Made by a program: the position numbers and the translations under genes
The notes under the pieces: generated by a model
The model's database searches: none
Told to the model about the DNA's origin: nothing
Seen by the model: the letters and a program-made list of their open reading frames with translations, nothing else
Shown here: positions 3,815 through 35,692 of the stretch, piece by piece
Position numbering within the stretch: the stretch's first letter is position 1
How the letters are laid out: every line of letters begins with the position of its first letter
Origin: Bacteroidota bacterium
GTDB taxonomy: Bacteria; Bacteroidota; Bacteroidia; CAILMK01; JAAYUY01
Assembly (NCBI GenBank): GCA_016776505.1
Contig: JADHTG010000012.1
Span: forward strand, 223-64,222
DNA: 64,000 bases
Direction: 5' to 3'

Positions 3815-3833
3815 TATTTAATAAGCCAGCACT

Positions 3834-6096: not shown

Positions 6097-6144
6097 ATTC
6101 TTTATTAAAATTTAGTATGCCCTTTGGATGGCCAAATTCATCTA

Positions 6145-6756: not shown

Positions 6757-6760
6757 GGTG

Positions 6761-7738: not shown

Positions 7739-7764
7739 AATTTATAGTTTTTTATTAAAGTCAT

Positions 7765-10689: not shown

Positions 10690-11403
10690 ATGGATACATA
10701 TACCAATAATGACATAGTAAGCTGTCACCACTGTGCCAACAAGGATGCTTCACTTTTTACTCATATCTCTAATCAGCACAAGGAAATTATTAATAATGCC
10801 AAAGTGCATTGCGATTATAAAAAAGGAGAAACTATTTTTAAGGAGGGGATGAAACCAACCGGTTTGATTTGTCTGAATGAAGGAAAAGTGAAAATATTCA
10901 AGGAAGGAATTGGAGGAAAAGAACAAATACTCAGGTTTGCAAAACCCATCCAGTTGATCGGATTCAGAGCTGTATTTTCAGATGAGAATTATATGGCTTC
11001 TGCTGTTGCCATTGAAGATTCCAGAGTATGTCATATTGAAAAAGACAAAGTTTTAGAGGTAGTTGATAAGGACAGCGAATTAGCTTTCAAAATAATACGA
11101 AGATTAGCTGATGAACTGGGGGATGCCAAAACTCGCCTGGTTAATCTAACTCAAAAACATGTGAGGGGCCGTTTGTCTGAAGCTCTTATCATTTTGCATG
11201 ATACCTATGGGAGTAATTCTGTTGATGGTTATTTGGATGTGCTGATTGGAAGAAATGACCTGGCTGACCTGGCGAACATGACGACTTCAAATGCCAGCCG
11301 AACACTTTCTGCCTTTGTGGAAGAAGGATTACTCAGTACACAGGGACGCAAAATTAAAATTCTTAACATGGAGAAGATCAAGCAAATCAGTTCCTATGGC
11401 TGA
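10690..11403 (+). CDS. Crp/Fnr-family transcriptional regulator with N-terminal CxxC
   Basis: N-terminal CHHC, a cNMP-binding-like domain and a C-terminal HTH (GRNDLADLANMTTSNASRTLSAF). Confidence 0.9.
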   Translation: MDTYTNNDIVSCHHCANKDASLFTHISNQHKEIINNAKVHCDYKKGETIFKEGMKPTGLICLNEGKVKIFKEGIGGKEQILRFAKPIQLIGFRAVFSDENYMASAVAIEDSRVCHIEKDKVLEVVDKDSELAFKIIRRLADELGDAKTRLVNLTQKHVRGRLSEALIILHDTYGSNSVDGYLDVLIGRNDLADLANMTTSNASRTLSAFVEEGLLSTQGRKIKILNMEKIKQISSYG

Positions 11404-11428: not shown

Positions 11429-11962
11429 TTAATCCAGGTCTAATTTAGCTCTGCAGGGCGTACAGAAATCCTTGCCTTTCTGATCAATGTCTTCTACATA
11501 GGTGCTTGACCTCATGACGCAAACAGGAATGTGGCAGTGTATTAAACCAAAAGTATGACCCAGTTCATGTATAATAATTTTTGCAAAGCGATTAAGCAAT
11601 AGTTTTTCGTCCTTTTTCATGCCGTATTGCTCATTTCTGAGCCTGTAAAGAGAAGCAATTCCCGAGTTTCCTTCCAATATGGCCTGTCCGAAAATATAGG
11701 TCAGAATGGGGATAAAAAGATCCACCCTGAATAATCCCACTTTCTTTATGGATTGCGCATAGGCCAGTGAATCAATTTCTTTTAACAAGCTATTTCCATC
11801 ATATTGCCGTCTGTCGGAATAATAAAAATCACTCAGATCCATATGACTTTCTTCCAATTGAACATCCAAATGAAACTGTAATCCTACATCCCTGGCTATT
11901 TTTTCAAGAAAATCGCTATCGAAATGCCCATGAGAAATTAATAATATACTTTGCTTATCCAT
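11429..11962 (-). CDS. Archaemetzincin-like zinc metalloprotease (peptidase M54)
   Basis: HELGHTFGLIHCHIPVCVM...CTPC matches the archaemetzincin signature HExxHxxGxxHCxxxxCxM...CxxC. Confidence 0.8.
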   Translation of the reverse strand: MDKQSILLISHGHFDSDFLEKIARDVGLQFHLDVQLEESHMDLSDFYYSDRRQYDGNSLLKEIDSLAYAQSIKKVGLFRVDLFIPILTYIFGQAILEGNSGIASLYRLRNEQYGMKKDEKLLLNRFAKIIIHELGHTFGLIHCHIPVCVMRSSTYVEDIDQKGKDFCTPCRAKLDLD

Positions 11963-12060: not shown

Positions 12061-13401
12061 TTATTTTGACTGTTTTAAACTGTATTTTTTTATTTTGTTG
12101 TAAAGTGTCACCCTGTCTACATTTAATGCTTTAGCCGAGCGGGAAATATTCCAGTCATATTTATTCAGAATTTGCTGGATGAATTTTTTCTCCAGATCAT
12201 CCAGGCTTTCAGAAGTATTACTCATGATATCTTTCTCGAGTGGAAGGTCTTTTAATCTTATTTCATTTTCATTACCCACCACGATGGCACGTTCAATCAT
12301 ATTTTCAAGTTCACGAACATTGCCAGGAAAATCATATTTTTCCAGTCGTTTCAAGGCAGCCTGGTGAATGGAAATGATATTCCTGCTCATGGATGTACAA
12401 TATTTTTCAATGAAGTAATTTACAAGCAATGGAATATCCTCAATTCTGTCCCGTAAAGGAGGTATAGTAATATTGACAACATTCAGACGATAATACAGGT
12501 CTTCACGAAAAGTACCATTTTTCACCATCTTCAACAAATCCCTGTTTGTAGCACATATGATCCTGAAATCAGATGATATTTCCTTATTACCCCCCACCCG
12601 AACAAATGTTTTTGTTTCCAACACACGAAGCAATTCCACTTGCATTTTAGATGATATGGTAGCGATCTCATCCAAAAAAATAGTGCCTCCATCTGCCATT
12701 TCGAACCGACCTTTGCGATTAAACATAGCACCTGTAAATGCTCCTTTTTCATGTCCGAATAATTCACTTTCCAGTAAGCTTTCAGTTAAAGCACCACAAT
12801 GCACGCTAACCAATGGAAAAAATTTTCTCTGGGAATTGTAATGTATCGCACGGGCAATCAGTTCTTTTCCTGTGCCACTTTCACCGGATATAATGATGGG
12901 TGAATTAGACTGGGCCACTTGCTCTACTTCTTTAAGCACTTTCATCATGGCTTCACTTGTCCCGATCAGATCTTCTACATTTTCCAGGGTGACCACTTTG
13001 TTTCTTAAAGCCTCATTTTCCGCTACAAGCGAAATCTGGTTGGCCGCATTTCTGATTAAATGAGACAGGTCGTCCGGATCAAAAGGTTTGGTTATATAAT
13101 CATAAGCTCCATCTTTCAAAGCCTGAACAGCGGTTGAAACAGATGCAAATGCCGTCATGATGATCACTATCGATTCTTTATTTAACGATTTGATCCTACG
13201 GTGCATTTCCAAACCATCCATTCCTGGCATTTTGATATCAGCAAGGATGATGTCAAAATTCTTGGATTCAAGAACTGACAACGCTTGCTTGGCATTTTCT
13301 GCACAATCCACCTGGTAGCCATCTTCAATAAACCAATTGTATAATGAATCTCTTACAGATTCCTCATCATCCACAACTAAAATTGAAATATTTTCAGCCA
13401 T
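12061..13401 (-). CDS. Sigma-54-dependent response regulator (NtrC family)
   Basis: Receiver domain (ILVVDDE..DIILADIKMPGMDG), AAA+ Walker A GESGTGKE, the sigma-54 contact motif GAFTGA and a C-terminal Fis-type HTH. It overlaps the upstream kinase gene by 8 nt. Confidence 0.93.
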   Translation of the reverse strand: MAENISILVVDDEESVRDSLYNWFIEDGYQVDCAENAKQALSVLESKNFDIILADIKMPGMDGLEMHRRIKSLNKESIVIIMTAFASVSTAVQALKDGAYDYITKPFDPDDLSHLIRNAANQISLVAENEALRNKVVTLENVEDLIGTSEAMMKVLKEVEQVAQSNSPIIISGESGTGKELIARAIHYNSQRKFFPLVSVHCGALTESLLESELFGHEKGAFTGAMFNRKGRFEMADGGTIFLDEIATISSKMQVELLRVLETKTFVRVGGNKEISSDFRIICATNRDLLKMVKNGTFREDLYYRLNVVNITIPPLRDRIEDIPLLVNYFIEKYCTSMSRNIISIHQAALKRLEKYDFPGNVRELENMIERAIVVGNENEIRLKDLPLEKDIMSNTSESLDDLEKKFIQQILNKYDWNISRSAKALNVDRVTLYNKIKKYSLKQSK

Positions 13402-15031
13402 TTTTTTGTTTTTTATTCTTTACCAAGGGTAAAATTATAGAAATAGTAGTTCTTTTGCCAAGTACAGAGTCCACATCGACACTTCCATTATGACCTTCAA
13501 TAATTCCATGGACAATGGCTAATCCCAAGCCAATGCCACTTGCTTTTTGCTTGGCTGAGTAAAAAGGTTCAAACACATGTGGAATATCTTCCGGATCAAT
13601 TCCTACCCCATTATCCCTTATCTCCAGTTTGATATGGCGGGCATCCGGATTACTCGTTTTCATAATAATTTCACCATTCTCCATGACCGCTTCAGAAGCG
13701 TTCAGCAAAATGGCAATACAAGCTTGTTTGATCTGGTTTTCATTGCAATGCACTAAATCTTTTTTGGCAGAAAAATCTGAAAGAAAGCTAATATTCGCAA
13801 TCTTCATTTGATGTGCCATCAGAGTATATGCTTCTCCCACAATTTGATGCAAGTTTTTGTTTTCATATTTTTGAAGATCCTTTCTTGAAAATTCCAATAG
13901 GCCCTTTACTATCTCACCGCATCGTTTGGTTTCAATTTCAATCACCCGCAAATATTTTAACATGGGTTCTTTGACCGAATCATCCAGATCAAGCTTGTTT
14001 AATTGCTTATGAACCAATTTGGTATAGGTTAAAACCCCGGCTAATGGATTATTAATTTCGTGGGCAACAGAAGAGGATAATTTACCCAGAGAAGCGATTC
14101 GTTCCACATGTATTAATTCGCCCTGAATTTCTGATAGCTCTTCAGATTTCTTTTGCACCTTGTATTCAAGCTGTTGTGACCAGTTTTGCAACTCAGTCGT
14201 AGCCATTTGCAGGTTATCAAGCATTTCATTGAAAGCTGTGGAAACCAGTCTCATATCATTCAACTGGTGAGATTTAATTTCCAACCTGGTACTTTTATCT
14301 CCCCTGGATACGGCTTCACTCGCCTTTATGATAGCATTTAAAGGATTTTTGATCTTTAGCCTGGTAAAAAAGATTAAGAAAGTCACTAAGATAAGAGTGG
14401 TCAGGGTGGCTAATGCATAGGATTTGTTGAGGTTTGTATCCAGCTCCTCTAAAGGTATTCTGATCACAAAAGAACCCAATACCTCCTCCTCCTGCTTGTG
14501 TGCATGACAAGAACCGGTATAACAGGATCTTTCATTCAAAATAGGAGATTTAATTAAAAGCAGCCGTCTATGGTAATCATACTGGCTCATGCTGCACTTA
14601 CTGTCAAAACTAATAATTCTGAAGGATTTTTCATTCCTGGGAAACATTTCTTCAATATTGCCGTGGCATTCCTTGCAATTTGGATTGCTGTGCCCGGTAG
14701 CTTCTTCAGAAAAGGATGAATATACCAGCCTGTCCTGCTGATCGTACATATTCACGTCCTCTATGCCTGGCATTTTGTTGATGATATTCAGCATATTTTG
14801 CAATGCTGTGTTATCGTTTTCCAGCATATACTGATACAGGGCACCTTCAACAAGCAAACAAACATTGTTCCCACTCTGCTGAATGATACTTTCCATGTAT
14901 TCCTTATTGACTGTTTTGAAAATGGTACCAAATGATATGAACAGAAAAATAGCTAAAATAGCTATGATCAGCACCACCTGACCGTATATGGAGGATGTGA
15001 AGCTAAAGTATTTTTTAAACAAAGAACTCAT
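13394..15031 (-). CDS. Sensor histidine kinase with periplasmic domain carrying CxxCH and Cx4CH motifs
   Basis: Layout is TM, about 165 aa extracytoplasmic domain, TM, HAMP, DHp (SVAHEINNPL) and HATPase (GIGLGLAIVHGI). CKECH is encoded at 14663..14677 and CYTGSCH at 14504..14524, both verified on the DNA. Confidence 0.9.
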   Translation of the reverse strand: MSSLFKKYFSFTSSIYGQVVLIIAILAIFLFISFGTIFKTVNKEYMESIIQQSGNNVCLLVEGALYQYMLENDNTALQNMLNIINKMPGIEDVNMYDQQDRLVYSSFSEEATGHSNPNCKECHGNIEEMFPRNEKSFRIISFDSKCSMSQYDYHRRLLLIKSPILNERSCYTGSCHAHKQEEEVLGSFVIRIPLEELDTNLNKSYALATLTTLILVTFLIFFTRLKIKNPLNAIIKASEAVSRGDKSTRLEIKSHQLNDMRLVSTAFNEMLDNLQMATTELQNWSQQLEYKVQKKSEELSEIQGELIHVERIASLGKLSSSVAHEINNPLAGVLTYTKLVHKQLNKLDLDDSVKEPMLKYLRVIEIETKRCGEIVKGLLEFSRKDLQKYENKNLHQIVGEAYTLMAHQMKIANISFLSDFSAKKDLVHCNENQIKQACIAILLNASEAVMENGEIIMKTSNPDARHIKLEIRDNGVGIDPEDIPHVFEPFYSAKQKASGIGLGLAIVHGIIEGHNGSVDVDSVLGKRTTISIILPLVKNKKQKNG

Positions 15032-15071: not shown

Positions 15072-16715
15072 TTATGTTTTTTTTGTTTTTTTTATTGGTA
15101 AAAATATGGATATTGTTGTGCGTTTTCCCATTTCAGAATCCACCTCCACTTTCCCATTATGACTTTGGGCAATACCATGTACAATGGCCAAACCCAGTCC
15201 AATTCCACTTGATTTCTGCTTTGCAGAGAAAAATGGTTCGAAAACATGAGGGATATCTTCAGGTGCAATACCCACCCCATTATCAGTAATCTCGAGTTTA
15301 ATGATATCCTTTTCCGGGTTAGTCGTTTTCATCCATATTTCTCCATTGTCAGACATAGCTTCAGAAGCATTCAATAAAATAGCAATGCATGCCTGTTTTA
15401 TTTGATTTTCACTGCAGCTTATTAAATCCGATTTGGCAGAAAAATCAGTTCGAAAAATAATATCTGATATCTTCATTTGGTGGGCCATGAGGGTATATGT
15501 TTCTTCCAGGATTTTATGCAGGTGCTTGACTTCAAAATCATGTTGGTCTTTCCTTGAAAATTCCAGTAAGCCTTTAACGATGTCTCCACAGCGTTTTGTT
15601 TCCAATTCAATGGTTCTCAGATATTTTAACATCGAATCTTTTCCTGCATCATCCAACTGGGGTTTGCTCAATTGCTTTTGAACCAGCTTGGTATAGGTTA
15701 AAATCCCTGATAAAGGATTATTTATTTCATGGGCAACGGAAGAAGAAAGTTTACCCAGTGATGCAATTCGTTCCACATGGATTAATTCATTTTGCATTTC
15801 AGAGATCTCCACTGACTTCTGCTGCACCTTGTATTCGAGTTGTTGAGACCAATTTTGTAATTCATTTGTAGCTGATTGTAAATTGTCAAGCATTTCATTA
15901 AATGCACCTGAAACCATTCTCAGATCATATAAATGTTCAGGTTTTATCTCCAAACGGGTGCTCTTATCTCCCTTAGAAACAGCTTCACTGGCCTTGATAA
16001 TGCCATTCAAAGGATTGATGATTTTCCTCCTGGTGAAAAACATTAAAAAAGCCACAAGCAAGAGGGTGGTTAAAGCAGCCAAAAGGAAAAAATCAGTCGA
16101 GGATTCTTCCACAGCTGCGTCCAGGTCATTCAACGGGATTCGAATAACAAAGGATCCAAGGACCTCCTCGCTTTTATCATGTGCATGGCAGGCACTGGTA
16201 TAACAGGATTTTTCATTTAAAATGGGGGACCTGATTAAAAGCAGCCTGTGGTCATAGTCCTTCTGGCTCATCCTGCATTCGTGATCAATATTTATGATTT
16301 TGAAGGTCTTTTCTTTTCCTGGAAACATGCTATTGATATCCGAATGGCAATCCTTGCAATTGGGATTGTTGTGGCCTATGGTGTCATCGGAAAATGAGGA
16401 ATGAACAAGATTGTCCTCACTATCATACATGTTGACATCTTCAATACCCGGCATGGTATTGATAACATCCAGGGTGTTTTGGAGTGCGCTCCTGTCATTT
16501 TTAAGCATGGAATAATATAAAGCACCTTCGACTATGGAACCAATATTGTTTCCGTTTTGCTTAATTACTGTGTTTAAATAGCGCTCGTTGACTGACCTGA
16601 AAATGATGCCAAATGCTAAAAATACAAAAACAGACAGTATAGTGATGGTATATACTACCTGGCCATAAATGGTGAATCTAAATTTTGCTATTTTCTTTAA
16701 AAATCTATTCAACAT
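15072..16715 (-). CDS. Sensor histidine kinase, tandem paralog of 13394..15031, same heme-motif sensor domain
   Basis: Same architecture as the neighbouring kinase. CKDCH is encoded at 16344..16358, and CYTSACH is conserved. Confidence 0.9.
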   Translation of the reverse strand: MLNRFLKKIAKFRFTIYGQVVYTITILSVFVFLAFGIIFRSVNERYLNTVIKQNGNNIGSIVEGALYYSMLKNDRSALQNTLDVINTMPGIEDVNMYDSEDNLVHSSFSDDTIGHNNPNCKDCHSDINSMFPGKEKTFKIINIDHECRMSQKDYDHRLLLIRSPILNEKSCYTSACHAHDKSEEVLGSFVIRIPLNDLDAAVEESSTDFFLLAALTTLLLVAFLMFFTRRKIINPLNGIIKASEAVSKGDKSTRLEIKPEHLYDLRMVSGAFNEMLDNLQSATNELQNWSQQLEYKVQQKSVEISEMQNELIHVERIASLGKLSSSVAHEINNPLSGILTYTKLVQKQLSKPQLDDAGKDSMLKYLRTIELETKRCGDIVKGLLEFSRKDQHDFEVKHLHKILEETYTLMAHQMKISDIIFRTDFSAKSDLISCSENQIKQACIAILLNASEAMSDNGEIWMKTTNPEKDIIKLEITDNGVGIAPEDIPHVFEPFFSAKQKSSGIGLGLAIVHGIAQSHNGKVEVDSEMGKRTTISIFLPIKKTKKT

Positions 16716-16857: not shown

Positions 16858-16901
16858 AAAAGCAAAAGCGATTTGAACAGGACGCCACTCGCTTTTGCTT
16901 T
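16858..16901 (-). terminator. Intrinsic terminator after the GCV_H-like gene
   Basis: 13-bp stem AAAGCAAAAGCGA/TCGCTTTTGCTTT immediately downstream of the stop at 16922. A T-rich tail follows on the minus strand. Confidence 0.7.
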
Positions 16902-16921
16902 CTTCCTAACATATGAGTTTC

Positions 16922-17638
16922 TTACTTTTTCTGATCAAGAAATTCCTCCTGGAAATCCTCCCAAACCTCATTGGGTAAATCTGAAAGTATGTGGTCACGC
17001 AATTCTCCCCCATCCTGTAACACGGCCATGGAGGGCTGTGATGAATACTTTCTCATCGGACCACCCATCACAAAATCCTTGAATCTGTCCAATTCCTTTT
17101 TTGACCAATTTGTTGCTTCTTCTGCGAGGTAATAGGAATTTGTTTCAGCAATCCAACTGGATGGCTTGATTTCATAAAGCCAACCCTGATCATATGGATC
17201 TTCGTTTAAGATCTCAGGTGTATCATGCAATAATGAATTCACACTGATGATTTCACCGGATATGGGTGAAAAGATCTTCAGTTTCTTGCCATTTTGGTCA
17301 ATTTCAGTCAACAATTCACCTTTTCGAATTTGTTCACCTGAATTTTTCAGTTTACTGAAATTCACCTTTCCAGTGATATGCTGCAGGAAATCATCCAATC
17401 CTACTTTGGCATTACCGGAAGCTTCCAAAAAGGTCCAGGTATGTGTTTTATTGTAATATAAGCCTTGTGGAATTCTCAGAATACCGGCAGAAAGATTGCC
17501 CAGTAACTTTCGTATTTGCTTCGTTACCTGTTTGCCGGATAATTTCCAGAAAACGATCAGAACTACCAAATAACCAATGACAAACAAATATTCAATGCCT
17601 TTGGTATCGAATATGTCTATTTTGCTAAAACCTTCCAT
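16922..17638 (-). CDS. Membrane-anchored glycine-cleavage H-protein-like (GCV_H fold) protein with C-terminal extension
   Basis: One N-terminal TM helix followed by a K/R-rich stretch. H-protein landmarks are HTWTF, VGLDDFLQ, PISGEI and EDPYDQGW. The lipoyl-Lys column is Gly in QNGK. It overlaps the NrfD-like gene by 22 nt. Confidence 0.7.
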   Translation of the reverse strand: MEGFSKIDIFDTKGIEYLFVIGYLVVLIVFWKLSGKQVTKQIRKLLGNLSAGILRIPQGLYYNKTHTWTFLEASGNAKVGLDDFLQHITGKVNFSKLKNSGEQIRKGELLTEIDQNGKKLKIFSPISGEIISVNSLLHDTPEILNEDPYDQGWLYEIKPSSWIAETNSYYLAEEATNWSKKELDRFKDFVMGGPMRKYSSQPSMAVLQDGGELRDHILSDLPNEVWEDFQEEFLDQKK

Positions 17639-18882
17639 TGTCTTTTCTTTTTAATATTTTTAGTTAAAGATTTAAACTCTACATTGCTGCCAACCCATTC
17701 AGGAGATTCTGTATATACAGGCATTCTTCTGACTATCCATCTGAATACCAGAATCTGTACAAAAATGACAGCCAGACTAACTACTACTTCCATCCAGGTA
17801 GGAAAGTGAATCATGTTTTCCTGCCAATGATAGGCAAATGTGGAGATATTGAGCCTGTTCAGGATGATTCCCACAATCACCATAACAGCTGCTAATCTGA
17901 CGACTAATAAATTGAGATTCCTGTACCCGTATATAAACAAAGCGCATGGAATAACTACAAAACCAATTACTTCAAGCAGGTACCAATAACCCCATGGACT
18001 GCCCAGGTACACATAGTTTTTACCGTGTATAAACACCAAAACAGTCATAGAAAAATAGACAAATAGGGTGACTGCGCAAGTTTTGGCCAGACTTAACATA
18101 ATGTTTTTATGAGAGCTTTTAAACACATATGACATGATGCGTTTAAACACTCTTTGATTAATCGATTCCAGGATAATCACCAATGAAAGTCCGGCAAAAA
18201 TGCTTGAAATAAAGAAGAGAATAGGTATAAACTCAGAATACCAGAGGGGATGGATCTTTGTTTTGGCCATTAAAAAGAGTGCCCCAAGACCCGATTGATG
18301 TAATGTGGAAAGTGCAATTCCAAAAATAACCACCCCTAAAGTGAGTGAAACAAAGAATTTTCTTTGCTTCTTCAAACCGATCCATTCTGTGACTGTTGGA
18401 AAAAATTCAATAAATAAGGATCCCATGTACAAAATAAAATGCCAGGCAACCAGAAATAGTACTGCACTGATGCCAAAAGAGTTTCCTATGATCGGGTTGA
18501 TCACTTTCCATGGACGACCCAGGTCCAGTAAAAGCGCACCTGCATAAAATATATACGATAACAGGGCGTATAATACGGTGGCTCTTACAATGGGTCTGTA
18601 TTTCTCCATGCCCAGTATATATACCATAAAAGTCACTACAAAGGCTCCCCCGGCAAATGCCACCCCTGTGATGACATTAAAATTAATCCACAATCCCCAT
18701 GGAGCATCCTGGGAAGCATGAATGACAGAACCTAATCCTTTTGTAAAACGAATAAAAAGAATAATGGCTGCTGCCGATATGGTCAATGCAGATATGACAT
18801 TGAACGGTGTAAAGATTTTTCCTTTTGGTTTCAATTCATGTAGGATGAATTTAAAAACCCCTGTTTGTTGTTCGCTTTTCAT
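17617..18882 (-). CDS. NrfD/HybB/DsrP-family integral membrane subunit
   Basis: 421 aa with about 10 TM helices, directly downstream of a TAT FeS subunit, as in the hybAB, dsrOP and nrfCD pairs. Confidence 0.8.
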   Translation of the reverse strand: MKSEQQTGVFKFILHELKPKGKIFTPFNVISALTISAAAIILFIRFTKGLGSVIHASQDAPWGLWINFNVITGVAFAGGAFVVTFMVYILGMEKYRPIVRATVLYALLSYIFYAGALLLDLGRPWKVINPIIGNSFGISAVLFLVAWHFILYMGSLFIEFFPTVTEWIGLKKQRKFFVSLTLGVVIFGIALSTLHQSGLGALFLMAKTKIHPLWYSEFIPILFFISSIFAGLSLVIILESINQRVFKRIMSYVFKSSHKNIMLSLAKTCAVTLFVYFSMTVLVFIHGKNYVYLGSPWGYWYLLEVIGFVVIPCALFIYGYRNLNLLVVRLAAVMVIVGIILNRLNISTFAYHWQENMIHFPTWMEVVVSLAVIFVQILVFRWIVRRMPVYTESPEWVGSNVEFKSLTKNIKKKRQWKVLAK

Positions 18883-18883
18883 C

Positions 18884-19753
18884 TTAGTTCATTTTATCTT
18901 TTGCGATTTTATTTTTTCTTTCCATGACGGAATTATTCAGACCCAGCATAAAAGCAGGCCATAAGACCAGTACTGCAGGAACTGAATAAAGGAATGTTTT
19001 GTTGTATTCCGGATAGGCAGTTGTTCCCAGATCCGTTTTCATTCCCAATTCCTCGAAGGGAACAGATGAAAGATATAAAAGACCCGTTCCACCTACTTCA
19101 TGTTCACCATATACCTCGTGGTAATACATATCAGGTTTTGCATAGATTCTTGCTTTTGCTATTTCAAGCAGATCTCTTCTCTTTCCAAATATAATGGCTT
19201 CCTGCGGGCAGGCATCTACACAGGCAGGTATACCACCATCCTTCATGACTTCATAGCACATCCGGCATTTCTGGATTTTTGGATTCGGACTGTCATATTC
19301 AAATTTGGGAACATCAAAAGGACAGGCGATCATGCACGATCTGCAACCCATGCACTTATCTTCCCTCCAAATAACCGGTCCTTCCTCCGTTTTGTACATG
19401 GCTTTGGTTAAGCAGGCAGATGCACAAGCCGGACTGTTGCAGTGATTACAAGAATTACGTATATACTGTTCACCCTTCGAAGTCTCATAACTATTCAGTA
19501 CCACACGCCTCTTCTCATCTGTTTTGCGCACTAATCCCACTTCCGGAAAATCTGTGGAATAAGGTAGCTCATATTGATCTGAGCATGCATATTCACAATT
19601 TTGACAAGCCGTGCAAAGTACTGAATCATATAAAATTCCATAAAATTCTTTGTCGGATTTTTTCCCCTTAGTGGAGCCAAAGCTCTTCCCAAACGTGAGT
19701 GTAGCTCCCGTAGCCCCCAGGGTTTTTAAAAAATTTCTTCTATTAATTCCCAT
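18884..19753 (-). CDS. TAT-exported four-cluster 4Fe-4S ferredoxin subunit with C-terminal anchor (HybA/DsrO-like)
   Basis: Twin-arginine signal NRRNFLKTLG. Four Cys groups (CTACQNCEYAC, CNHCNSPACASAC, CMGCRSCMIACP, CRMC...CVDACP). C-terminal TM helix. Confidence 0.88.
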   Translation of the reverse strand: MGINRRNFLKTLGATGATLTFGKSFGSTKGKKSDKEFYGILYDSVLCTACQNCEYACSDQYELPYSTDFPEVGLVRKTDEKRRVVLNSYETSKGEQYIRNSCNHCNSPACASACLTKAMYKTEEGPVIWREDKCMGCRSCMIACPFDVPKFEYDSPNPKIQKCRMCYEVMKDGGIPACVDACPQEAIIFGKRRDLLEIAKARIYAKPDMYYHEVYGEHEVGGTGLLYLSSVPFEELGMKTDLGTTAYPEYNKTFLYSVPAVLVLWPAFMLGLNNSVMERKNKIAKDKMN

Positions 19754-19892
19754 TATTTTTTATTTAGGTTTTTAGAAAAGTTCCTTGTTTGTAAGATAAA
19801 TTGTAATTCAAATGACTGTTTTCAGAGAACATCATTCTTATTGGTTTTTTGAAATTGCTGTTTTTTTTGTAGGATTCGGACTTAAATACTGC

Positions 19893-19906
19893 ATGAAGTA
19901 TGTCAT
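19893..19906. promoter_or_regulatory. Inverted repeat ATGAA-GTAT-GTCAT (weaker member of the ATGAY-N4-RTCAT set)
   Basis: atgaagtatgtcat lies in the 175-bp gap upstream of the HybA-like gene. Confidence 0.3.
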
Positions 19907-19928
19907 TTTAAAATGAGTACCATTTGAT

Positions 19929-21614
19929 TTAATTTTCCATTATTTGCGAATTGTCAATAAAAAAAGTCTGAAAATCTTCCCATATTTCAGGGCCCATTTT
20001 TTCCAGGATACTGTCTTTCAGCTCTCCTCCATCCTGAAGTACTACAAGAGCATAGTCCCTGGAATCCGGATTCAAGGTTTCTGTAAGAAAATCCCTCAGT
20101 CTTGAAAACTCCTTACTAAGCCATACTTTATATTTTTCAGCCATTATTAAAAACTGCATTTCTCTTATCCAGTTGGTGGGCTCAATTCTATAAACCCAAC
20201 CATCAGAATAAGGATCTTCATTGATGATGGATGAATTCTTCAGGAGTAAATCATTTTGTGCTTTAATAACTCCAGAAATAGGCGCATAAATGTTCAATTG
20301 TTTGCCATTTTGTATAATGGAAAGAATGTGTTCTCCTTTCTTTACCTTATCACCGGTGTTCTTCATTTTAACACGGGTTATAGCACCTGTGACATGCTGA
20401 AGGAAATCATCAATACCTATTTTGACTTTTCCATCTTTTTCCATGTATACCCAGGTATGTGTTTTATCATAAAGAAGTCCTTTTGGAATGGTCAAAGAGT
20501 TCAAATTGAATACAGCTGATAAAATGGATTTTGTTTCAACTACTGTCACTTTCTTATACTTTATCAGCTGGAATACAACAAGCATTATTAAAATTAAGCC
20601 AAAACTTACTGCAACTGTGATGATTAAGTTTTTTGTGTTGGTCAGAACATAGTTTTCATTCAAAGTGGCTAAATTCATGTCATTATAAATTAATTCGATA
20701 TTTGCAAGTCTTTCACTTACCATAAGATCCCAATATCCGGCTGCTGCCAGCAACTGCTGCCCATCACTTAGAATCCATTTTAAGAAGGCCACTTCAATTT
20801 CATTGGTAGGTTTCTTAGCCGAGATAGAATAAATATTTCGGTATAAATTTTTTGGATATTTTCCAATCCATACTCCTCGGGTTAGTGTATTTAGGTCATC
20901 ATAAATTTGTTCTGTATAATCCAGTTGACCATTTCCGTTCCGGTCGATAGGCAGTAATTTAATATGATCCACTATCCTCTGACCGGGCAGATCGATAATA
21001 TCCGCCATTTTACAAAAACCAATTGCGTAGGGATCTTTTTGAATAGCAGAAAGCAAGTCCTTTTCATTTTCAAGCTGTATTCCATTAAGGACCACATTCT
21101 GACTTAATCCCAGGAAACTGGCAATTCTGGACTGAACAGCCTCATCATTGATCAGGTAGTAATGAATGGGTGCATTAAAATCCCCATTCAACAGGGCATT
21201 CCAAAATTCACCCTCCTTATTAGTGAATATTTGAGCAATGCTTTGAGCAGAAAGACCTTTTTTATTAATTTCATCCAGCAGTGGATTTTCAGAGTTTATA
21301 ATAGGTACAAGAATATCTCTTCCAAGCTCCATTTTCCATAAGGGATCTGTAGAGGGATCGACATAATATTCATCAGAACTAAAGAATAAATTTTTCTTGA
21401 GAGATACATCCTCCTGGCTTAGTTCGATTTTCACATTGGGATTTAAGCGGCAGAATTCATTTGCCCATGTGGATGTAAGCTGATATAATTCCGAACTGCT
21501 ATAAATATGTATGGAACCTTTAAGAGGAGGCCGGGTTTTAATTTCATTAATACTGTGTAGAAAACTACAATTTAACAGAAGTAATCCGATAAGAGGCAGG
21601 ATCTTAATTTTCAT
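19929..21614 (-). CDS. Fusion protein: periplasmic PstS-like substrate-binding domain, TM helix, GCV_H-like domain
   Basis: Signal peptide. PBP-like 2 landmarks (GSIHIYSSSELYQLTSTWANEF, DILVPIINSENP..LSAQSIAQIF, YAIGFCKM). TM helix LIITVAVSFGLILIMLVVFQLI followed by KYKK. The H-protein-like domain (HTWVY, IGIDDFLQ, QNGK, PISGVI, EDPYSDGW) carries the same C-terminal extension as 16922..17638. I prefer the ATG at 21614 over the GTG at 21620. Confidence 0.7.
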   Translation of the reverse strand: MKIKILPLIGLLLLNCSFLHSINEIKTRPPLKGSIHIYSSSELYQLTSTWANEFCRLNPNVKIELSQEDVSLKKNLFFSSDEYYVDPSTDPLWKMELGRDILVPIINSENPLLDEINKKGLSAQSIAQIFTNKEGEFWNALLNGDFNAPIHYYLINDEAVQSRIASFLGLSQNVVLNGIQLENEKDLLSAIQKDPYAIGFCKMADIIDLPGQRIVDHIKLLPIDRNGNGQLDYTEQIYDDLNTLTRGVWIGKYPKNLYRNIYSISAKKPTNEIEVAFLKWILSDGQQLLAAAGYWDLMVSERLANIELIYNDMNLATLNENYVLTNTKNLIITVAVSFGLILIMLVVFQLIKYKKVTVVETKSILSAVFNLNSLTIPKGLLYDKTHTWVYMEKDGKVKIGIDDFLQHVTGAITRVKMKNTGDKVKKGEHILSIIQNGKQLNIYAPISGVIKAQNDLLLKNSSIINEDPYSDGWVYRIEPTNWIREMQFLIMAEKYKVWLSKEFSRLRDFLTETLNPDSRDYALVVLQDGGELKDSILEKMGPEIWEDFQTFFIDNSQIMEN

Positions 21615-21669
21615 AATCACTAAATTTATCTTGTTAATTAAATTTTTCAGCTTTGATCAATTTTTGGAT

Positions 21670-21686
21670 TTCAACTAAGGTGCCAA
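21670..21686 (-). promoter_or_regulatory. Candidate sigma-54 (-24/-12) promoter
   Basis: The minus strand reads TTGGCAC-CTTAG-TTGAA against the consensus TGGCAC-N5-TTGCW. The -24 element is perfect and the -12 has GA instead of GC. It lies about 57 nt upstream of the ATG at 21614. Confidence 0.55.
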
Positions 21687-21762: not shown

Positions 21763-21779
21763 TGTTGAATATTTAAACA
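21763..21779. promoter_or_regulatory. Candidate enhancer (UAS) site TGTTGAA-TAT-TTAAACA
   Basis: Imperfect inverted repeat about 110 bp upstream of the predicted sigma-54 start. It has the same half-site and spacing as 21852..21868. Confidence 0.4.
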
Positions 21780-21842: not shown

Positions 21843-21868
21843 TTCAACAGCTGTTGAAATATTCAGCA
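21843..21868. promoter_or_regulatory. Candidate enhancer (UAS) cluster: perfect palindrome TTCAACAGCTGTTGAA overlapping TGTTGAA-ATA-TTCAGCA
   Basis: ttcaacagctgttgaa (21843..21858) is a perfect 16-bp palindrome. The TGTTGAA half-site is reused by a second inverted repeat ending at 21868. Confidence 0.45.
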
Positions 21869-22141
21869 TATTCGAATTTAAGCACAAAACAAAGGAGAAT
21901 GAATGATCTTAAATCATTGATTATCTATATTTTACAGAGGCTTGGATTTTCTGCTAATAATCATGAATTTTGATGAAAACAAGATTTTACCGACCGGAAT
22001 TAATATAAAGAGAATCCATTTTCCACAAAAATATTTTTGAGACCTGGTCAGATTTTTGGTTGAATTGTTAAGGGAATTAATGCGAAAAAAGAGGCTTATC
22101 TGAATGTCAAACAAGCTCCTTCCAATTGTAGATTTTATATC

Positions 22142-22714
22142 TTAAACGATGCCGGAAAATCCCATGAAAGCCAAAGCTAAAATACCTGCCACGATGAATG
22201 AAATGGGAACTCCCCGCATGCCTTTTGGAACTTCCATCAGGTCAAGATGTTCACGAATACCGGCAAAAATGATCAGTGCCAGGCCAAAACCAATGGCATT
22301 TGCAATTGCATAAACAACTCCTCCAACCAGGCTGTAATTCCCGTTGATAGTTAAAATAGCTACACCTAAAACAGCGCAATTTGTCGTGATCAGGGGCAGG
22401 AAAATTCCCAGTGCCTGGAATAATGTAGGACTGAGCTTTTTCAAAATGATCTCCACCATTTGAACCAAAGCAGCAATTACCAGGATAAAGCTGATCGTCT
22501 GAAGGAATTCAAGTCCATAAGGTTGCAATACATAATACCTAATCATATAGGTGACCAAAGTAGCCAGTGTCATCACAAACAATACTGCGCCACCCATGCC
22601 TACGGCTGTGTCAATTTTCTTGGAAACGCCAATAAACGGACATATTCCAAGAAATTGGGCAAGGACAATGTTGTTCACGAATACAGCCAGAATGATAATT
22701 GTTAAAATTTCCAT
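22142..22714 (-). CDS. rnfA: Rnf complex subunit A
   Basis: 190 aa, 6 TM, N-terminus ..[21 protein letters not shown] typical of RnfA/NqrE-type subunits. Last gene of the rnfBCDGEA order. Confidence 0.93.
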
Positions 22715-22719
22715 CAGAC

Positions 22720-23325
22720 TTATGATTTAGATATTCTGTTCATGATGCTTATTAAATATCCGAGCCCTATAAAAGCACCTGGCGCCAGTACAAAAACCAG
22801 CATGGTGACAGGACTCCCGCCCTCATCTATTGGATATATCGGCACGCTTAAACCAAAGAATGCACCTGATCCAAGGATCTCCCTTACGGCCCCCAGCAGT
22901 GTTAAAGCAAATGTGAATCCTATTCCCATGCCTAATCCATCAATAATTGAATTAAAAACCGTGTTCTTGGATGCAAAAGCTTCTGCCCTTCCCAAAACAA
23001 CACAATTGACCACAATTAATGGAATAAATAAACCCAGTTGTTCATGCAGGGCCGGAACATAGGCATTCATAACCAAATCTACAATTGTCACAAAGGAGGC
23101 TATGATCACTATAAAAGAAGGGATCCTTACTTTATTTGGTATTTGGTTTTTGATAATGGAAACAACTAAATTCGACATGATCAGCACGAAAGCAGTTGCC
23201 AATCCCATTCCCAAACCGTTGATTGCTGATGTAGTAACACCTAAAGTAGGACATAAACCCAGCAACAATATAAATACCGGGTTTTCTTTAATAAATCCTT
23301 TTGACAATGTTTCCTTTATACTCAT
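22720..23325 (-). CDS. rnfE: Rnf complex subunit E
   Basis: [18 protein letters not shown] motif, 6 TM, about 200 aa. Confidence 0.93.
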
Positions 23326-23939
23326 AATTCTTTCCCTCCCTCTATGCTTAATGCCTCAAAGGCCCTGTTTACGGCATCACAAAAAGCCCTTGAACTGATG
23401 GTAGCAGCTGTGATGGCATCCACATCTCCTCCATCTTTTTCAACACGAATGATAAAATCCCTGGGATCTTTGCCCTTGAATTGCAATGGGAATTTAGATT
23501 TTGATTCATCCATTTTGTCTCCTAAACCCGGAGTTTCAAAATGCTCCACGACAGCTGTATTATAAATTTTTCCTGTTGCATCAATGCCTAGCATGATCCA
23601 GAACTTACCGCTATAGCCCATATTTGTGTAAGACTTTACTGCTGTCCCGATAAATTCTTCTTCATTGAATGCCTTATAGAGTATAATGGTATCAGCTACC
23701 GGATCTCTTTTATAAATACTTTGAACCAGCTCTCCTTCTTCTACGAAAGTGCTTTTTTCAAGTCTGTCAAACTCCGGCAATACTTTTCTGATCGCATCTG
23801 TTACTTTTCTTTCTTTGGCTTCTTTTATTTTGTCTTTGGTGAGATTATAAATACTTCCCAAAGAAAAGGCAGCAACAACCGTCACAATAAACAATGTCAT
23901 GGTCATTGTTAAAAACGTTGATTCTTTTTTACTTGCCAT
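23322..23939 (-). CDS. rnfG: Rnf complex subunit G (FMN-binding)
   Basis: N-terminal anchor and covalent-FMN motif context [13 protein letters not shown] 4-nt overlap with rnfE. Confidence 0.9.
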
Positions 23940-23965
23940 CTGGTTTGAATAAAATAATTATCAAA

Positions 23966-24970
23966 TTAAATGTTTATCTTTTCTCCAAAGCGTACAGGTT
24001 TAAATCCCCGATTGATCAATGGTACAAAAGCGTTCATTATTAATATGGCAAATGACACACCCTCCGGATAGGCTCCAAATACCCTGATCAAAATGGTCAG
24101 GACGCCACAACCCAATCCAAATATAATCTGGCCTTTCCCTGCCATGGGAGAAGTGACCATATCCGTTGCCATAAAGAAAACGCCAAGCATCAGTCCCCCG
24201 GTTATTAAATGAAATAAAGGATCTACATATTGTTCTGGATTAATGAGCCACAATATGCCTGAAAAAATGATCACCGAAGCAATATATGATACTGGAATAT
24301 GCCAGCTTATGATTTTCCTGAACAGCATAAACAGGGCTCCAAGAAATAATGCAATTGCAGATACTTCTCCCAATGAGCCTCCCATATTCCCCATCAACAA
24401 GTCCATATATTCCGGAATTTGTGTTTTAAGAGCCGTTACTGTTTCGCCATTTGCCAAACCTTCCTTCATGATAGCCAATGGAGTAGGTCCTGTACTCGCA
24501 TCAACAAGTTTTCCGCTAAACAGGGGGTTTACTACCGGCCAGGAAGTCATTTGAACCGGAAAAGAAATAAGCAAAAACACACGACCTACGAGTGCAGGAT
24601 TAAATGGATTTTTACCCAATCCGCCAAAAGACATTTTCCCCATACCAATGGCAACCAGACTACCAATAATCACTATCCACCAGGGCAAATCGGATGGGAC
24701 ATTAAACGCAATCAGTATTCCTGTGATGATAGCAGAGCCGTCCCCAATGGTGGTCATGCCTTTGATGAGGTATTTTTGAATGAGGAATTCAAATAAAACA
24801 CAAGCAGCAACTGCAATGAGCGTTACCCTCAGAGCTTCCAGTCCAAAGAAATAAATGGAAACCAGTAAAGCAGGGATCATCGCATAAATAACACCCCACA
24901 TAATTTTGGGCACATTTTGATTGCCGTGCATGTGAGGAGAGGGGGAAACAGTTAATATATTACCACTCAT
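23966..24970 (-). CDS. rnfD: Rnf complex subunit D
   Basis: Polytopic membrane protein. N-terminal SPSPH motif and FFMATDMVTSP are typical of RnfD/NqrB. Confidence 0.93.
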   Translation of the reverse strand: MSGNILTVSPSPHMHGNQNVPKIMWGVIYAMIPALLVSIYFFGLEALRVTLIAVAACVLFEFLIQKYLIKGMTTIGDGSAIITGILIAFNVPSDLPWWIVIIGSLVAIGMGKMSFGGLGKNPFNPALVGRVFLLISFPVQMTSWPVVNPLFSGKLVDASTGPTPLAIMKEGLANGETVTALKTQIPEYMDLLMGNMGGSLGEVSAIALFLGALFMLFRKIISWHIPVSYIASVIIFSGILWLINPEQYVDPLFHLITGGLMLGVFFMATDMVTSPMAGKGQIIFGLGCGVLTILIRVFGAYPEGVSFAILIMNAFVPLINRGFKPVRFGEKINI

Positions 24971-26307
24971 TAGTTTTGTCTTGATCTCATTAATTTTCCA
25001 ACCTGTGTTTTACCTAAACGAATATAATCCAGCAATGGTCTGTAAGATGGACATGTATACATACATGAACCACATTCAATACAATCCATGATCCTGTTTT
25101 TTTCACACCCACTATAGTCTTCATATTTCGCCAGTTGGGCAAGATAAAAAGGTTCGAGTCCCATGGGACAAACAGCAGTGCATTTTCCACATCGGATGCA
25201 ATTCACAGCGCGTGATCTTTTTGCTTCTTTGGCATTCATAATCAGTATCCCGGATGTTCCTTTTACTACGGGCACTTCTAAAGAATTAAGTGCTTTGCCC
25301 ATCATGGGACCACCGCTGATTACTTTACCCGTATCCTCTGGTAATCCACCTACTTTTTCAATCAATTGGGAAATGGGAGTACCTATTCTAACCTGGAAAT
25401 TTGCAGATTCCATTAATGATTTTCCTGCCACCGTTACAATTCTTTCAATCAGGGGTTTGTTTTTCTGAACAGCTTCGTAGACGGCAAAGGCAGTTCCCAC
25501 ATTGTTTACTACAGCACCTACTTCAATGGGCAGTTTTCCACTGGGAACTTCCCTGTTGATGCATGCCTTGATTAATTGTTTTTCACCTCCCTGGGGATAT
25601 TGTACCTTAAGGGCTTGTATGCTAATGCCGGGATAATCTGCAATTAGACTTGCTAAATGGTCAATTGCATCCATTTTATTGTTTTCAATGCCAATAATGG
25701 CCCTGTCAACACCTAATCCTTTCATTAATATTTGACACCCAACAAGCAACTCCTCCCCTCTTTCCAGCATTAAACGATGGTCAGAAGTGAGGTAGGGTTC
25801 ACACTCCACCCCATTGATCAGTAAAACTTCAGCCACTTTTCCCTTAGGAACCATCAGCTTTACATGAGAAGGAAAGGTAGCACCTCCCAGGCCCACTATG
25901 CCCGATGATTTGATCTTTTCGATGATATCAGATTGTGTCAGCTCTCTTATATTCCTGTTTAGTTCAGTGGATCTGTCGATACCATCTGTCCAATCATCTC
26001 CTTCCACCTCAATAAGAACCGCATTTCTGCGATAGCCGGAACTATCCGGCACTCCATCCACTTTAAGCACTTTTCCTGAAACGGAGGAATGAACCTGGGC
26101 AGAAATGAAAGCCTCACCCTTGCCAATCAACTGGCCGACTTGAACCTGATCTCCTCTCTTTACGATGGGGATGGAAGGTACACCAAGGACCTGGCCAAGA
26201 GGAATTGAAACCTGGGTAGGAATGGGCATCAGCTCAATTGCTTTTCCAGCTGAAATCTTATGTTCCGGTGGATGAATACCTCCTAATTTGAATGTTTTTA
26301 ATGTCAC
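24970..26307 (-). CDS. rnfC: Rnf complex subunit C
   Basis: SGIVGLGGATFPSHVK motif and two ferredoxin motifs, CIRCGKCTAVCP and CIECGSCMYTCP. Confidence 0.95.
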   Translation of the reverse strand: MTLKTFKLGGIHPPEHKISAGKAIELMPIPTQVSIPLGQVLGVPSIPIVKRGDQVQVGQLIGKGEAFISAQVHSSVSGKVLKVDGVPDSSGYRRNAVLIEVEGDDWTDGIDRSTELNRNIRELTQSDIIEKIKSSGIVGLGGATFPSHVKLMVPKGKVAEVLLINGVECEPYLTSDHRLMLERGEELLVGCQILMKGLGVDRAIIGIENNKMDAIDHLASLIADYPGISIQALKVQYPQGGEKQLIKACINREVPSGKLPIEVGAVVNNVGTAFAVYEAVQKNKPLIERIVTVAGKSLMESANFQVRIGTPISQLIEKVGGLPEDTGKVISGGPMMGKALNSLEVPVVKGTSGILIMNAKEAKRSRAVNCIRCGKCTAVCPMGLEPFYLAQLAKYEDYSGCEKNRIMDCIECGSCMYTCPSYRPLLDYIRLGKTQVGKLMRSRQN

Positions 26308-26318
26308 TTTATTTCTAA

Positions 26319-27299
26319 TTAAACCTGCTTATCAGTTTTAGCTTCTCCTTTCGACTCGCTCGAAGCATCCTTAACAGCGGTATCTGATTTTTCATCCTTT
26401 TTGGTCAAGGGATTTGCAGAATCAGGTTTTTCAGCAATTTTATCCGGTACTGTCTGCTCCTTGACAGCCGGTCTTTCTTTTCTTGGACGAAAATTCACTT
26501 CCCAAATAGTATTTGTTTCGCATTCAGGTGCACATTTTCTGCAAAGAGTACATTTATGTGGATCGATGTATGCCAGAAAATTTTCGATCTTAATCGCATC
26601 GAACTTACAGACTTTTTCACATTTGCGACAGGCTGTGCAGGTCACACTGCAATTGGCTTTTGCAGGTATTGCTTTTTCTTCATTCATACAGGCAACAAAA
26701 ATTCTCCTGTCTTTTTTACCCCTGGGTCTTAGCTCTAAAATATTTCTGGGACAAGCCTTTACACAAGCTCCGCACGCATTGCAATTATCCTTCACAACAG
26801 GCAGACCGGTTTGTTCGTCCATATACATTGCATCAAAGTCACAGGCTTCCACACAATCTCCACAGCCTAAGCAACCGTAAGCACATCCTCCTTCTCCGGA
26901 AAACAAGGCATTGGCCACAAAACAGGATTTTACTCCGTCATATTGTACTTTTTGAGGTGAATGTTCACAGCTTCCATTGCATCTTAATACAGCAATTTCA
27001 GGATCTTTCAGATCTGCTTCAAGTCCCAATGCCTGTCCAATATCAGTCATCAGATCAGCTCCACCTACTGGACAATTAAAGCCTTCCATATTTTCGGCCT
27101 TAACGATTTCCTCTGCAAAATTCCTACATCCCGCAAAGCCGCATCCCCCACAATTCGCGGCAGGAAGAACCTCTTCCACCTCATCTATGCGGGGATCTTC
27201 TATGACTTTGAATTTTTGGGCAACAAAAAAGAGGATTATTGCAGCAATTACTCCTATTGCACCTAGGGATATAACAGCATAAAGGATAATTTCGTTCAC
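26319..27299 (-). CDS. rnfB: Rnf complex subunit B (polyferredoxin) with K/E/D/S-rich C-terminal tail
   Basis: N-terminal anchor, CGGCGFAGC motif and several CxxCxxCxxxCP motifs. The last ~55 aa are low-complexity (..KEQTVPDKIAEKPDSANPLTKKDEKSDTAVKDASSESKGEAKTDKQV). Confidence 0.92.
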   Translation of the reverse strand: MNEIILYAVISLGAIGVIAAIILFFVAQKFKVIEDPRIDEVEEVLPAANCGGCGFAGCRNFAEEIVKAENMEGFNCPVGGADLMTDIGQALGLEADLKDPEIAVLRCNGSCEHSPQKVQYDGVKSCFVANALFSGEGGCAYGCLGCGDCVEACDFDAMYMDEQTGLPVVKDNCNACGACVKACPRNILELRPRGKKDRRIFVACMNEEKAIPAKANCSVTCTACRKCEKVCKFDAIKIENFLAYIDPHKCTLCRKCAPECETNTIWEVNFRPRKERPAVKEQTVPDKIAEKPDSANPLTKKDEKSDTAVKDASSESKGEAKTDKQV

Positions 27300-33374: not shown

Positions 33375-33408
33375 TATTGGATATAATTTCTTTTTGAGCA
33401 GTTTAATA

Positions 33409-35682: not shown

Positions 35683-35692
35683 TTAATATATC

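Follow-up and report, generated by a model that had tools for sequence, protein, structure and literature searches.

A Bacteroidota gene cassette joining an iron-sulphur/NrfD membrane module and two H-protein-like membrane proteins to a haem-motif histidine kinase and a sigma-54 activator

We describe here a gene cassette of a Bacteroidota bacterium (NCBI GenBank assembly GCA_016776505.1), found in a stretch of 64,000 nucleotides of contig JADHTG010000012.1 (positions 223 to 64,222), which is called the window throughout. An earlier reading of this stretch, made from the sequence alone and referred to below as the original prediction, had pointed to four tightly packed minus-strand open reading frames (ORFs) at 16922-21620, which we confirm and name a, b, c and d. 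They encode a periplasmic binding protein (PBP)-like domain fused across the membrane to a domain resembling the glycine-cleavage H-protein (GcvH), an exported four-cluster ferredoxin, a membrane subunit of the NrfD family and a second, membrane-anchored H-like protein. The four genes are real and co-conserved, but to treat them as a four-gene unit was too narrow, as a-b-c-d is the sigma-54-driven half of a larger, seven-gene cassette whose other half encodes histidine kinase (HK), response regulator (RR) and archaemetzincin (peptidase M54). Besides this larger cassette, the c-type haem-binding motifs of both kinases in the window and an invariant EF-hand-like loop in the PBP domain had been missed. 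Each part of the cassette comes from a known family, and the novelty lies in the combination itself, that is an iron-sulphur (FeS)/NrfD module with new partners under a two-component system. The features are listed in Table 1; the domain architecture and topology predicted for a, b, c and d hold in Pfam and NCBIfam scans, transmembrane (TM) helix prediction and, for a and d, AlphaFold2 models.

Table 1. Features of the cassette and their positions in the window
Feature	Position	Strand	Description
Gene a	19929-21614	-	Signal peptide, periplasmic PstS-fold domain, one TM helix, cytoplasmic GcvH-fold domain with C-terminal extension
EF-hand-like calcium-type loop, residues 226-237 of gene a	20910-20945	-	DxNxNGxLDxxE
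Gene b	18884-19753	-	TAT-exported, C-terminally anchored, four [4Fe-4S] cluster motifs; HmcB/HybA-like
Gene c	17617-18882	-	NrfD-family membrane subunit, HmcC/HybB-like, roughly 10-TM
Gene d	16922-17638	-	16-residue N-terminal tail, one TM helix, cytoplasmic GcvH-fold domain with extension; paralogue of the C-terminal half of a
Histidine kinase 1	15072-16715	-	TM, periplasmic domain with NPxCxxCH, CxM and Cx4CHxH, TM, HAMP, HisKA, HATPase
Histidine kinase 2	13394-15031	-	Tandem paralogue, same motifs
NtrC-type sigma-54-dependent response regulator	12061-13401	-	Identified by Pfam/NCBIfam domains
Archaemetzincin (peptidase M54)	11429-11962	-	Motif HELGHTFGLIHC...C.M...C..C
Sigma-54-type -24/-12 promoter	21671-21685	-	TGGCACCTTAGTTGA, TGGCAC-N5-TTGA; only match in the window
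Perfect palindrome	21843-21858	-	TTCAACAGCTGTTGAA; candidate upstream activator site for the sigma-54 response regulator
Further half-site	21763-21769		TTCAACA
Stem-loop after d	16858-16902	-	14-bp stem, then U-rich tract

A scan with the d family, taking one genome per species, gave at least 579 confirmed matches, and a representative search (E < 1e-30) yielded about 320 clusters at 50% identity, made up of d-like proteins (~240 amino acids) and a-like proteins (~560 amino acids). Synteny was examined in the best 80 of the at least 579 species-representative loci. As the original prediction had proposed to check, a, b, c and d are co-conserved across related genomes, and every contig of sufficient length shows the order a-b-c-d-HK(-HK)-RR-M54. 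The same order is seen in more distant variants, and the flanks of the cassette differ and are unrelated. Beyond the cassette itself no gene family is conserved next to the best 80 loci, catalytic and cytochrome genes included. The earlier observation that a-b-c-d contains no catalytic subunit thus extends to its conserved surroundings, and the concern that orthologous clusters might always lie beside a known catalytic enzyme was not borne out, since they are not adjacent to one. Literature searches on these components (glycine-cleavage H, NrfD, sigma-54 and haem kinase, with Bacteroidetes) found no description of the module, in keeping with the original prediction, which could name no characterised system of such a composition.

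The cassette is found in Bacteroidota, Marinimicrobia and probably KSB1, in anoxic sediments, lakes and groundwater. A KSB1-labelled contig carries HK-RR-M54. In a Marinimicrobia cassette (locus L083, 7019-15198) the first H-like protein is devoid of the PBP domain, a third H-like protein, soluble, Cys-rich and 252 amino acids long, bears an N-terminal C-x12-C-x5-C-x2-C motif and a weak GCV_H match, and the genes that follow the cassette directly encode multihaem cytochromes and a cytochrome b. Multihaem ORFs within 10 kb were found in 4 of the 82 Bacteroidota-type loci scanned, besides this window and the Marinimicrobia loci, and a multihaem cytochrome as a conserved neighbour was rejected on this count.

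The promoter predicted before a is a -24/-12 element of the sigma-54 type. A single such match in a 64-kb window equals chance expectation. Among 65 orthologous loci, 41 have TGGCAY-N5-TTGA ahead of a. In most of these 65 loci two TTCAACA/TGTTGAA sites, about 80-90 bp apart, also lie upstream of a; the window holds the palindrome and the half-site given in Table 1. Further upstream, a terminator-like hairpin (22094-22116) precedes the promoter. At the other end, the hairpin that had been taken for a terminator after d folds at -19.9 kcal/mol (z = -2.5) and is a probable terminator or transcript boundary; a consensus terminator scanner missed it because its loop is long. With a kinase of HisKA and HATPase domains, a regulator of REC, sigma-54 AAA+ and HTH_8 domains, and a -24/-12 promoter preceded by candidate upstream sites, the cassette has the make-up of a two-component system acting through sigma-54.

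The kinase is duplicated in tandem in the genome of the window and its close relatives, both copies keeping the haem motifs, and most related genomes have one kinase. The motifs NPxCxxCH, CxM and Cx4CHxH were present in all 81 kinase sensor domains examined, all from Bacteroidota-type loci. Known families are matched weakly by this domain (sCache_4, E = 0.0025; Cytochrome_C7, E = 0.09), and an identity with DUF3365/Cache_haem was discarded for want of a Pfam match. A homologue search with the sensor domain alone brought up nothing beyond fragments of this kinase family and revealed no further context; the domain was found only in this family. The motifs suggest that haem is attached to the periplasmic domain, and the organism makes c-type cytochromes, as indicated by two multihaem ORFs and a CcdA/DsbD_2-like gene in the window. 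Since no other cassette protein has haem c motifs, the kinase sensor is the only one besides b that could carry a periplasmic redox cofactor.

The archaemetzincin matches NF033823 with 156.8 bits (cut-off 145) and has the HExxHxxGxxHC...C.M...CxxC motif, with a spacer of 16 residues before the final CxxC instead of the 17 described in PMC3427221. Its gene follows that of the response regulator in every complete cassette, and the two overlap in some genomes. A search of the archaemetzincin literature returned only structural papers.

The ORF of gene a reaches 21620, and the family alignment supports the family-conserved ATG at 21614 as the real start, where it had been placed originally. Pfam scans and Foldseek agree with the predicted order of signal peptide, PstS/PBP-like domain, single TM helix and H-like domain; the signal peptide is of the Sec type and the TM helix spans residues 332-350. 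The Pfam match to PBP_like_2 is weak (27.1-29.7 bits, cut-off 27). Foldseek aligned the periplasmic domain to the PstS structures 4jwo, 4pqj and 1twy (E from 1e-16 to 1e-12, 13-20% identity), so the type-II PstS/PBP fold is present, and the score against the PstS model TIGR02136 is 26 bits for a cut-off of 206.6. The family alignment shows C/S-S/T-P-E/D-L and Y..(D/N)D in columns which we take to be the phosphate-binding positions of PstS, occupied there by the GS(S/T) and SGT motifs, a comparison of motifs and not of residues aligned in structure. On this comparison, phosphate is an unlikely ligand. What the domain conserves best is an EF-hand-type loop, D226-x-N-x-N-G-x-L-D-x-x-E237, which shows little or no variation across 61 diverse sequences. 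The periplasmic part of a is a degenerate PstS fold with a calcium-type loop, facing the periplasm.

Gene b had been described as a ferredoxin exported by twin-arginine translocation (TAT), with four clusters and a C-terminal anchor. The Pfam scan (TAT_signal 26.4 bits, Fer4_11 69.5 bits) and the family alignment, in which all 16 cysteines of the four cluster motifs are conserved, bear this out, and the C-terminal TM helix lies at residues 254-272. Its nearest solved relative is FdnH (1kqf_B). Gene c, predicted as a 10-TM protein of the NrfD/HybB type, scores well above the cut-off of NrfD PF03916 (46.8 against 25.8 bits); for this protein no solved structural relative was matched. The best NCBIfam models are HmcB (306, cut-off 420) and HmcC (365, cut-off 550), followed by HybA (206, cut-off 263) and HybB (208, cut-off 450), all below the equivalog cut-offs. 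The c counterparts of HybB R89, Y99, E148, H184, E155, K198, H200, E291 and R329 are conserved across the family; these are half-channel residues of HybB, and mutating R89, Y99, E148 or H184 impairs hydrogenase-2 activity (PMC8076601). By these signatures b and c form a bona fide module of the HmcBC/HybAB type, predicted to interact with quinone and keeping the proton-channel residues, and both look fully functional. A single cysteine of c, C269, is conserved in the family; it lies close to where a TM helix is predicted to reach the cytoplasm, and E. coli HybB has a serine there. The natural partner of HmcB and HmcC is a multihaem cytochrome of the c3 type. No periplasmic redox partner (multihaem cytochrome, hydrogenase or molybdoenzyme) is encoded in the unit or conserved within 10 kb in the 80 loci.

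The H-like domains of a and d are true GcvH folds and are not canonical H-proteins. Both exceed the GCV_H PF01597 cut-off of 22.2 by far (a 90.5 bits, d 88 bits), and their AlphaFold2 models (pLDDT, the predicted local distance difference test, 88 for a and 85 for d) superimpose on the E. coli and Thermus GcvH structures 3a7l, 1onl and 3ab9 with Foldseek TM-scores of 0.9-0.95 and ~31% identity, so that profile and structure agree on the fold originally proposed. The H-protein landmarks HxW, VGxDDF, SPxSG and DPYxxGW are kept in both, as had been noticed. The equivalog cut-offs for GcvH are nevertheless missed (TIGR00527, 82.1 and 82.6 bits for 115.85 needed; NF002270, 93.5 and 91 for 117). In a MAFFT alignment to E. 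coli GcvH the lipoyl-lysine column is a glycine, with a lysine (K440 in a, K118 in d) one residue later, as an alignment by eye had indicated; overall, the spacing to the Gly and Pro anchors on either side does not differ, which means that the lysine is truly displaced by one position. The hairpin turn in the model of d is Asn116-Gly117, and glycine occupies the position of the lipoyl tip. Lipoylation is reported to depend critically on correct placement of the lysine at the tip of the turn (PMC6270654, reviewing Wallis & Perham 1994). The a type has the Gly-Lys pair without exception (180 of 180 proteins). Conservation of the lysine in both paralogues, as first claimed, holds strictly for the a type but not for the d type, where the column reads K in 98 proteins, R in 6, H in 1 and Q in 1 (8 of 106 not Lys).

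Unlike the small, soluble and acidic GcvH, both domains are membrane-anchored and nearly uncharged, the net charge of the core being +0.4±2.3 in the a type and +0.8±3.2 in the d type, compared with -21 in E. coli GcvH. An additional C-terminal extension shared by the paralogues, put at ~70 amino acids in the original prediction, is real and measures ~80. Its consensus is P..W...W...E..RFKDF...VLQDGGEL...W..FQ..F, with invariant P, W, W, E, R, GG and W, and it has no Pfam or PDB relative (best E = 0.29 for a profile against PDB sequences). The label 'glycine cleavage system protein H', given to these proteins in the source annotation, is therefore misleading. Gene d was correctly predicted as a TM-anchored H-like protein overlapping c by 22 nucleotides; its TM helix lies at residues 15-33, and its 16-residue tail, ME.F.Y.NIF.TKGIEY, is among the best-conserved segments of the protein.

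Genes b and c are kept in about 97% of the loci seen. In two loci, L064 (9007-9274) and L065 (9811-10001), exactly b and c are gone, and a, d, kinase, regulator, M54 and the sigma-54 motif are kept. The nearest relatives of these two loci differ and both have b and c, so that the pair was lost twice independently. The ratio of non-synonymous to synonymous substitution rates (dN/dS) in pairs involving L064 and L065 is 0.15-0.18 for a and 0.10-0.12 for d, the same as in pairs that keep b and c. Genes a and d are thus under purifying selection without b and c, and have a function independent of an adjacent b/c pair, the latter being dispensable in these lineages. In the N-terminal tail and TM helix of d, L064 shows no difference from its relatives, and L065 is a single substitution away from L070. 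In another pair, L072 and L067, the synonymous divergence (dS) is about 1.5-1.6 for b and c and 0.3-0.5 for the other genes, which indicates that b-c was swapped as a unit between close relatives.

Co-evolution within the cassette was studied in 39 single-kinase genomes, for ten domains and thus 45 pairs, by partial correlation of pairwise distances controlling for all other domains, with partial Mantel permutations and taxon subsampling. The seven strongest pairs each gave p = 0.0005 and their values were stable to subsampling. Two of them are known partners and served as controls, the cytoplasmic part of the kinase with the response regulator (partial r 0.61) and b with c (0.33). The others are b with the kinase sensor (0.52), the PBP domain of a with the kinase sensor (0.37), c with the H-domain of d (0.34), the H-domain of a with the regulator (0.32), and the N-tail/TM of d with the cytoplasmic part of the kinase (0.30). 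The coupled test pairs are encoded by non-adjacent genes, so that linkage does not explain the coupling, and the absence of coupling between the PBP domain of a and b (-0.06) and between the kinase sensor and c (-0.09) argues against a simple effect of a shared periplasmic compartment. Read together, these indirect values make up a consistent wiring scheme in two parts, PBP(a) - kinase sensor - b - c - H-domain(d) and H-domain(a) - regulator. A coupling of 0.81 between the N-tail/TM of d and c, obtained in a first mirror-tree analysis of 48 genomes, was discarded, since the paralogous kinases of the two-kinase clade and the b-c exchange confound it; in the 39 single-kinase genomes it is 0.07 (p = 0.18).

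Our preferred reading, to which we give a probability of roughly 40%, is that the cassette encodes a self-regulated signalling complex sensing redox state or a ligand, and not a lipoyl swinging-arm relay. In such a complex the periplasmic haem domain of the kinase would be the redox partner that b appears to be without. Through the b/c pair, the kinase haems would be poised by the menaquinone pool or drained to it, and the PBP domain of a would provide a second, ligand input to the kinase. The H-like domains would act as protein-protein adaptors and not as lipoyl carriers, that of d on the cytoplasmic face of c and that of a as a feedback partner of the response regulator, in the manner of PspA-PspF or NifL-NifA. 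As the activator would drive a-b-c-d from the sigma-54 promoter, the feedback loop would be closed. Of the two roles offered in the original prediction, a ligand-gated device comes closer to the evidence than a redox relay, because the unit is the sigma-54 target of the adjacent haem-motif kinase/activator pair and co-evolves with that pair. The odds that the cassette represents a sensory device of a new type are substantial. More doubtful is the narrower proposal in which b and c form a private menaquinol-haem oxidoreductase that poises the haem domain of the kinase, next to a ligand input and a lipoate-free H-fold serving as adaptor to the sigma-54 activator; the kinase would then sense how reduced and how energised the membrane is. 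As a sub-case of it, the invariant off-tip lysine of the a-type domain may bear a covalent group.

Several points weigh against a sensory complex. A sensor whose only known target is its own accessory parts needs further targets elsewhere. The mirror-tree couplings are indirect and could reflect shared rate shifts rather than contact. The Marinimicrobia kinase has only Cx4CHxH of the two Cys-His motifs, and this could equally be a Cys2His2 metal site. The tail and TM helix of d are essentially unchanged in genomes without b and c, which makes any assignment of their binding partner tentative. The invariance of the lysine in the a type would also fit covalent modification, and the proposed model does not account for the archaemetzincin.

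The first alternative is an ordinary substrate-induced respiratory module, in which the kinase switches on a-b-c-d in response to a periplasmic compound, b and c link menaquinone to an enzyme or cytochrome encoded elsewhere or to a redox-active substrate captured by the PBP domain, and a and d are structural or assembly subunits. A two-component system beside a sigma-54-driven FeS/NrfD operon does resemble the logic of Ttr, Psr and Tor, as is generally known, b and c look intact, and the window contains multihaem cytochromes and a second NrfD/FeS pair about 3 kb away. We nevertheless consider it rather unlikely, as neither a catalytic nor a cytochrome gene is conserved near the 80 loci, multihaem ORFs being close by in only 4 of 82, and as the cassette stays together when it moves, its flanks being unrelated. 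The co-evolution of b with the kinase sensor also speaks against it, and the purifying selection on a and d after two losses of b and c is hard to fit with mere accessories of that pair.

These same losses, together with the exchange of b-c between close relatives and the persistence of the sigma-54 promoter before a-d where the pair is gone, speak for a Psp- or MgrB-like stress response. Here a and d would be kinase-induced single-pass effectors acting on the membrane or on the kinase and activator, and b and c an optional addition without any sensing role; the couplings of the H-domain of a to the regulator and of the d N-tail/TM to the cytoplasmic part of the kinase also speak for it. This proposal has somewhat lower odds still, for nothing else in the cassette is coupled to the kinase sensor as strongly as b (0.52), and b and c are retained in nearly all loci, packed tightly with a and d, with the overlap of c and d in the window.

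The remaining alternative, raised in the original prediction as a transmembrane redox relay onto a swinging-arm carrier, supposes that the H-like domains carry a lipoyl, persulfide or other group on the lysine next to the turn, charged or discharged by b and c, and although the GcvH fold with its ~31% identity to real H-proteins, the invariant Gly-Lys pair of the a type, the family-specific C269 of c and the generally known precedents of biotin carriers docking on membrane decarboxylases and of LbpA in sHdr may be cited for it, we regard it as improbable and as not supported by the data, because the tip of the turn is an invariant glycine with the lysine off it, the d type tolerates R, H and Q in the lysine column, the acidic surface of the H-protein is gone, neither a ligase nor a lipoyl synthase belongs to the cassette, a and d persist without b and c, and there is no electron route from the periplasmic clusters to the cytoplasm. 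The last point follows from the NrfD family, which is not known to carry a redox cofactor, and from the cassette having no b-haem subunit, so that electrons have no path to the cytoplasmic H-like domains.

The b/c pair has the TAT-exported, anchored four-cluster protein, the NrfD subunit and the channel residues of HmcBC/NhcBC of Desulfovibrio and of HybAB of E. coli hydrogenase-2. It differs from them in an operon devoid of the HmcA/NhcA multihaem cytochrome, the HybOC hydrogenase and any b-haem or HdrD-like subunit, in being flanked by two single-pass GcvH-fold proteins and in scores that stay below the equivalog cut-offs. Likewise a and d share fold and landmark motifs with GcvH, LbpA and GcvH-L, but are membrane-anchored, with a glycine for the lipoyl-lysine, an uncharged core and the ~80-residue extension. 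General knowledge also offers the three-component systems AioX-AioS-AioR and TorT-TorS-TorR, the latter with TorC feedback, in which a binding-protein fold, a membrane kinase and an activator, of the NtrC type as in the cassette, are encoded together; among these systems it is AioXSR that has a sigma-54 activator. The cassette resembles them in the sigma-54 promoter and upstream sites before the regulated operon and in the co-evolution of the binding domain with the kinase sensor. Unlike in AioXSR and TorTSR, a TM helix joins its binding domain to a GcvH-fold domain in the cytoplasm, the operon under regulation encodes the binding domain too, the Marinimicrobia variant has no such domain, and no catalytic oxidoreductase is regulated. 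The haem c sensors GSU0582 and GSU0935 of Geobacter (Cache_haem/DUF3365) have in common with the cassette kinase an extracytoplasmic CxxCH and a weak Cache-like similarity (PMC12889525). The cassette kinase is set apart from them by the missing DUF3365 match and by the joint presence of CxxCH, Cx4CHxH and a conserved CxM; its haem is predicted from motifs.

The cassette is abundant among anaerobic genomes of the Bacteroidota group, as the at least 579 matches indicate. Should the signalling reading be true, it would make a respiratory-type FeS/NrfD module the front-end of a sensor, anaerobes would couple the state of the quinone pool to sigma-54 transcription, and a cofactor-less H-protein fold would be used as a signalling adaptor. 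The cassette also gives a genetic context to bacterial archaemetzincins.

The surroundings of the cassette in the window contain further redox genes. About 3 kb away, a respiratory-type cluster on the minus strand (631-8637) encodes, in coordinate order, a multihaem cytochrome with six CxxCH motifs (weak sub-threshold MtrC/MtrF-like match), a 295-residue protein with no Pfam match, an NrfD protein (434 amino acids), a four-cluster ferredoxin (322 amino acids), a cytochrome b561, a c3-like cytochrome with seven CxxCH motifs and a DUF5777 membrane beta-barrel. The cluster resembles a conduit for electrons from quinol to the outer membrane. Directly upstream of the cassette, a six-gene block (22142-27299, minus strand) is read as a complete Rnf-type operon from its sequences and a weak RnfC_N match. 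It was rejected as a partner of the cassette, as the upstream flank differs in other genomes. Genes for HypF, HypD and HypE-like maturation proteins lie at 33394-38266 (plus strand), and the large and small subunits of a [NiFe]-hydrogenase, a maturation protease, two HdrA-like flavoproteins and an FeS protein are encoded at 40367-48427 (minus strand). The HdrA-like context suggests a cytoplasmic enzyme of the Mvh/Hdr type, and no hydrogenase is conserved beside the other loci; on these grounds we do not take this one for the missing catalytic partner. Fe/Mn superoxide dismutase is encoded twice within a short distance (28177-28788 and 29006-29581, minus strand), in an otherwise anaerobe-type gene set. 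The window further encodes three regulators of the Crp/FNR family, at 9287-9982 (plus strand), 10690-11403 (plus strand) and 48653-49363 (minus strand), two of which sit between the cassette and the multihaem cluster.

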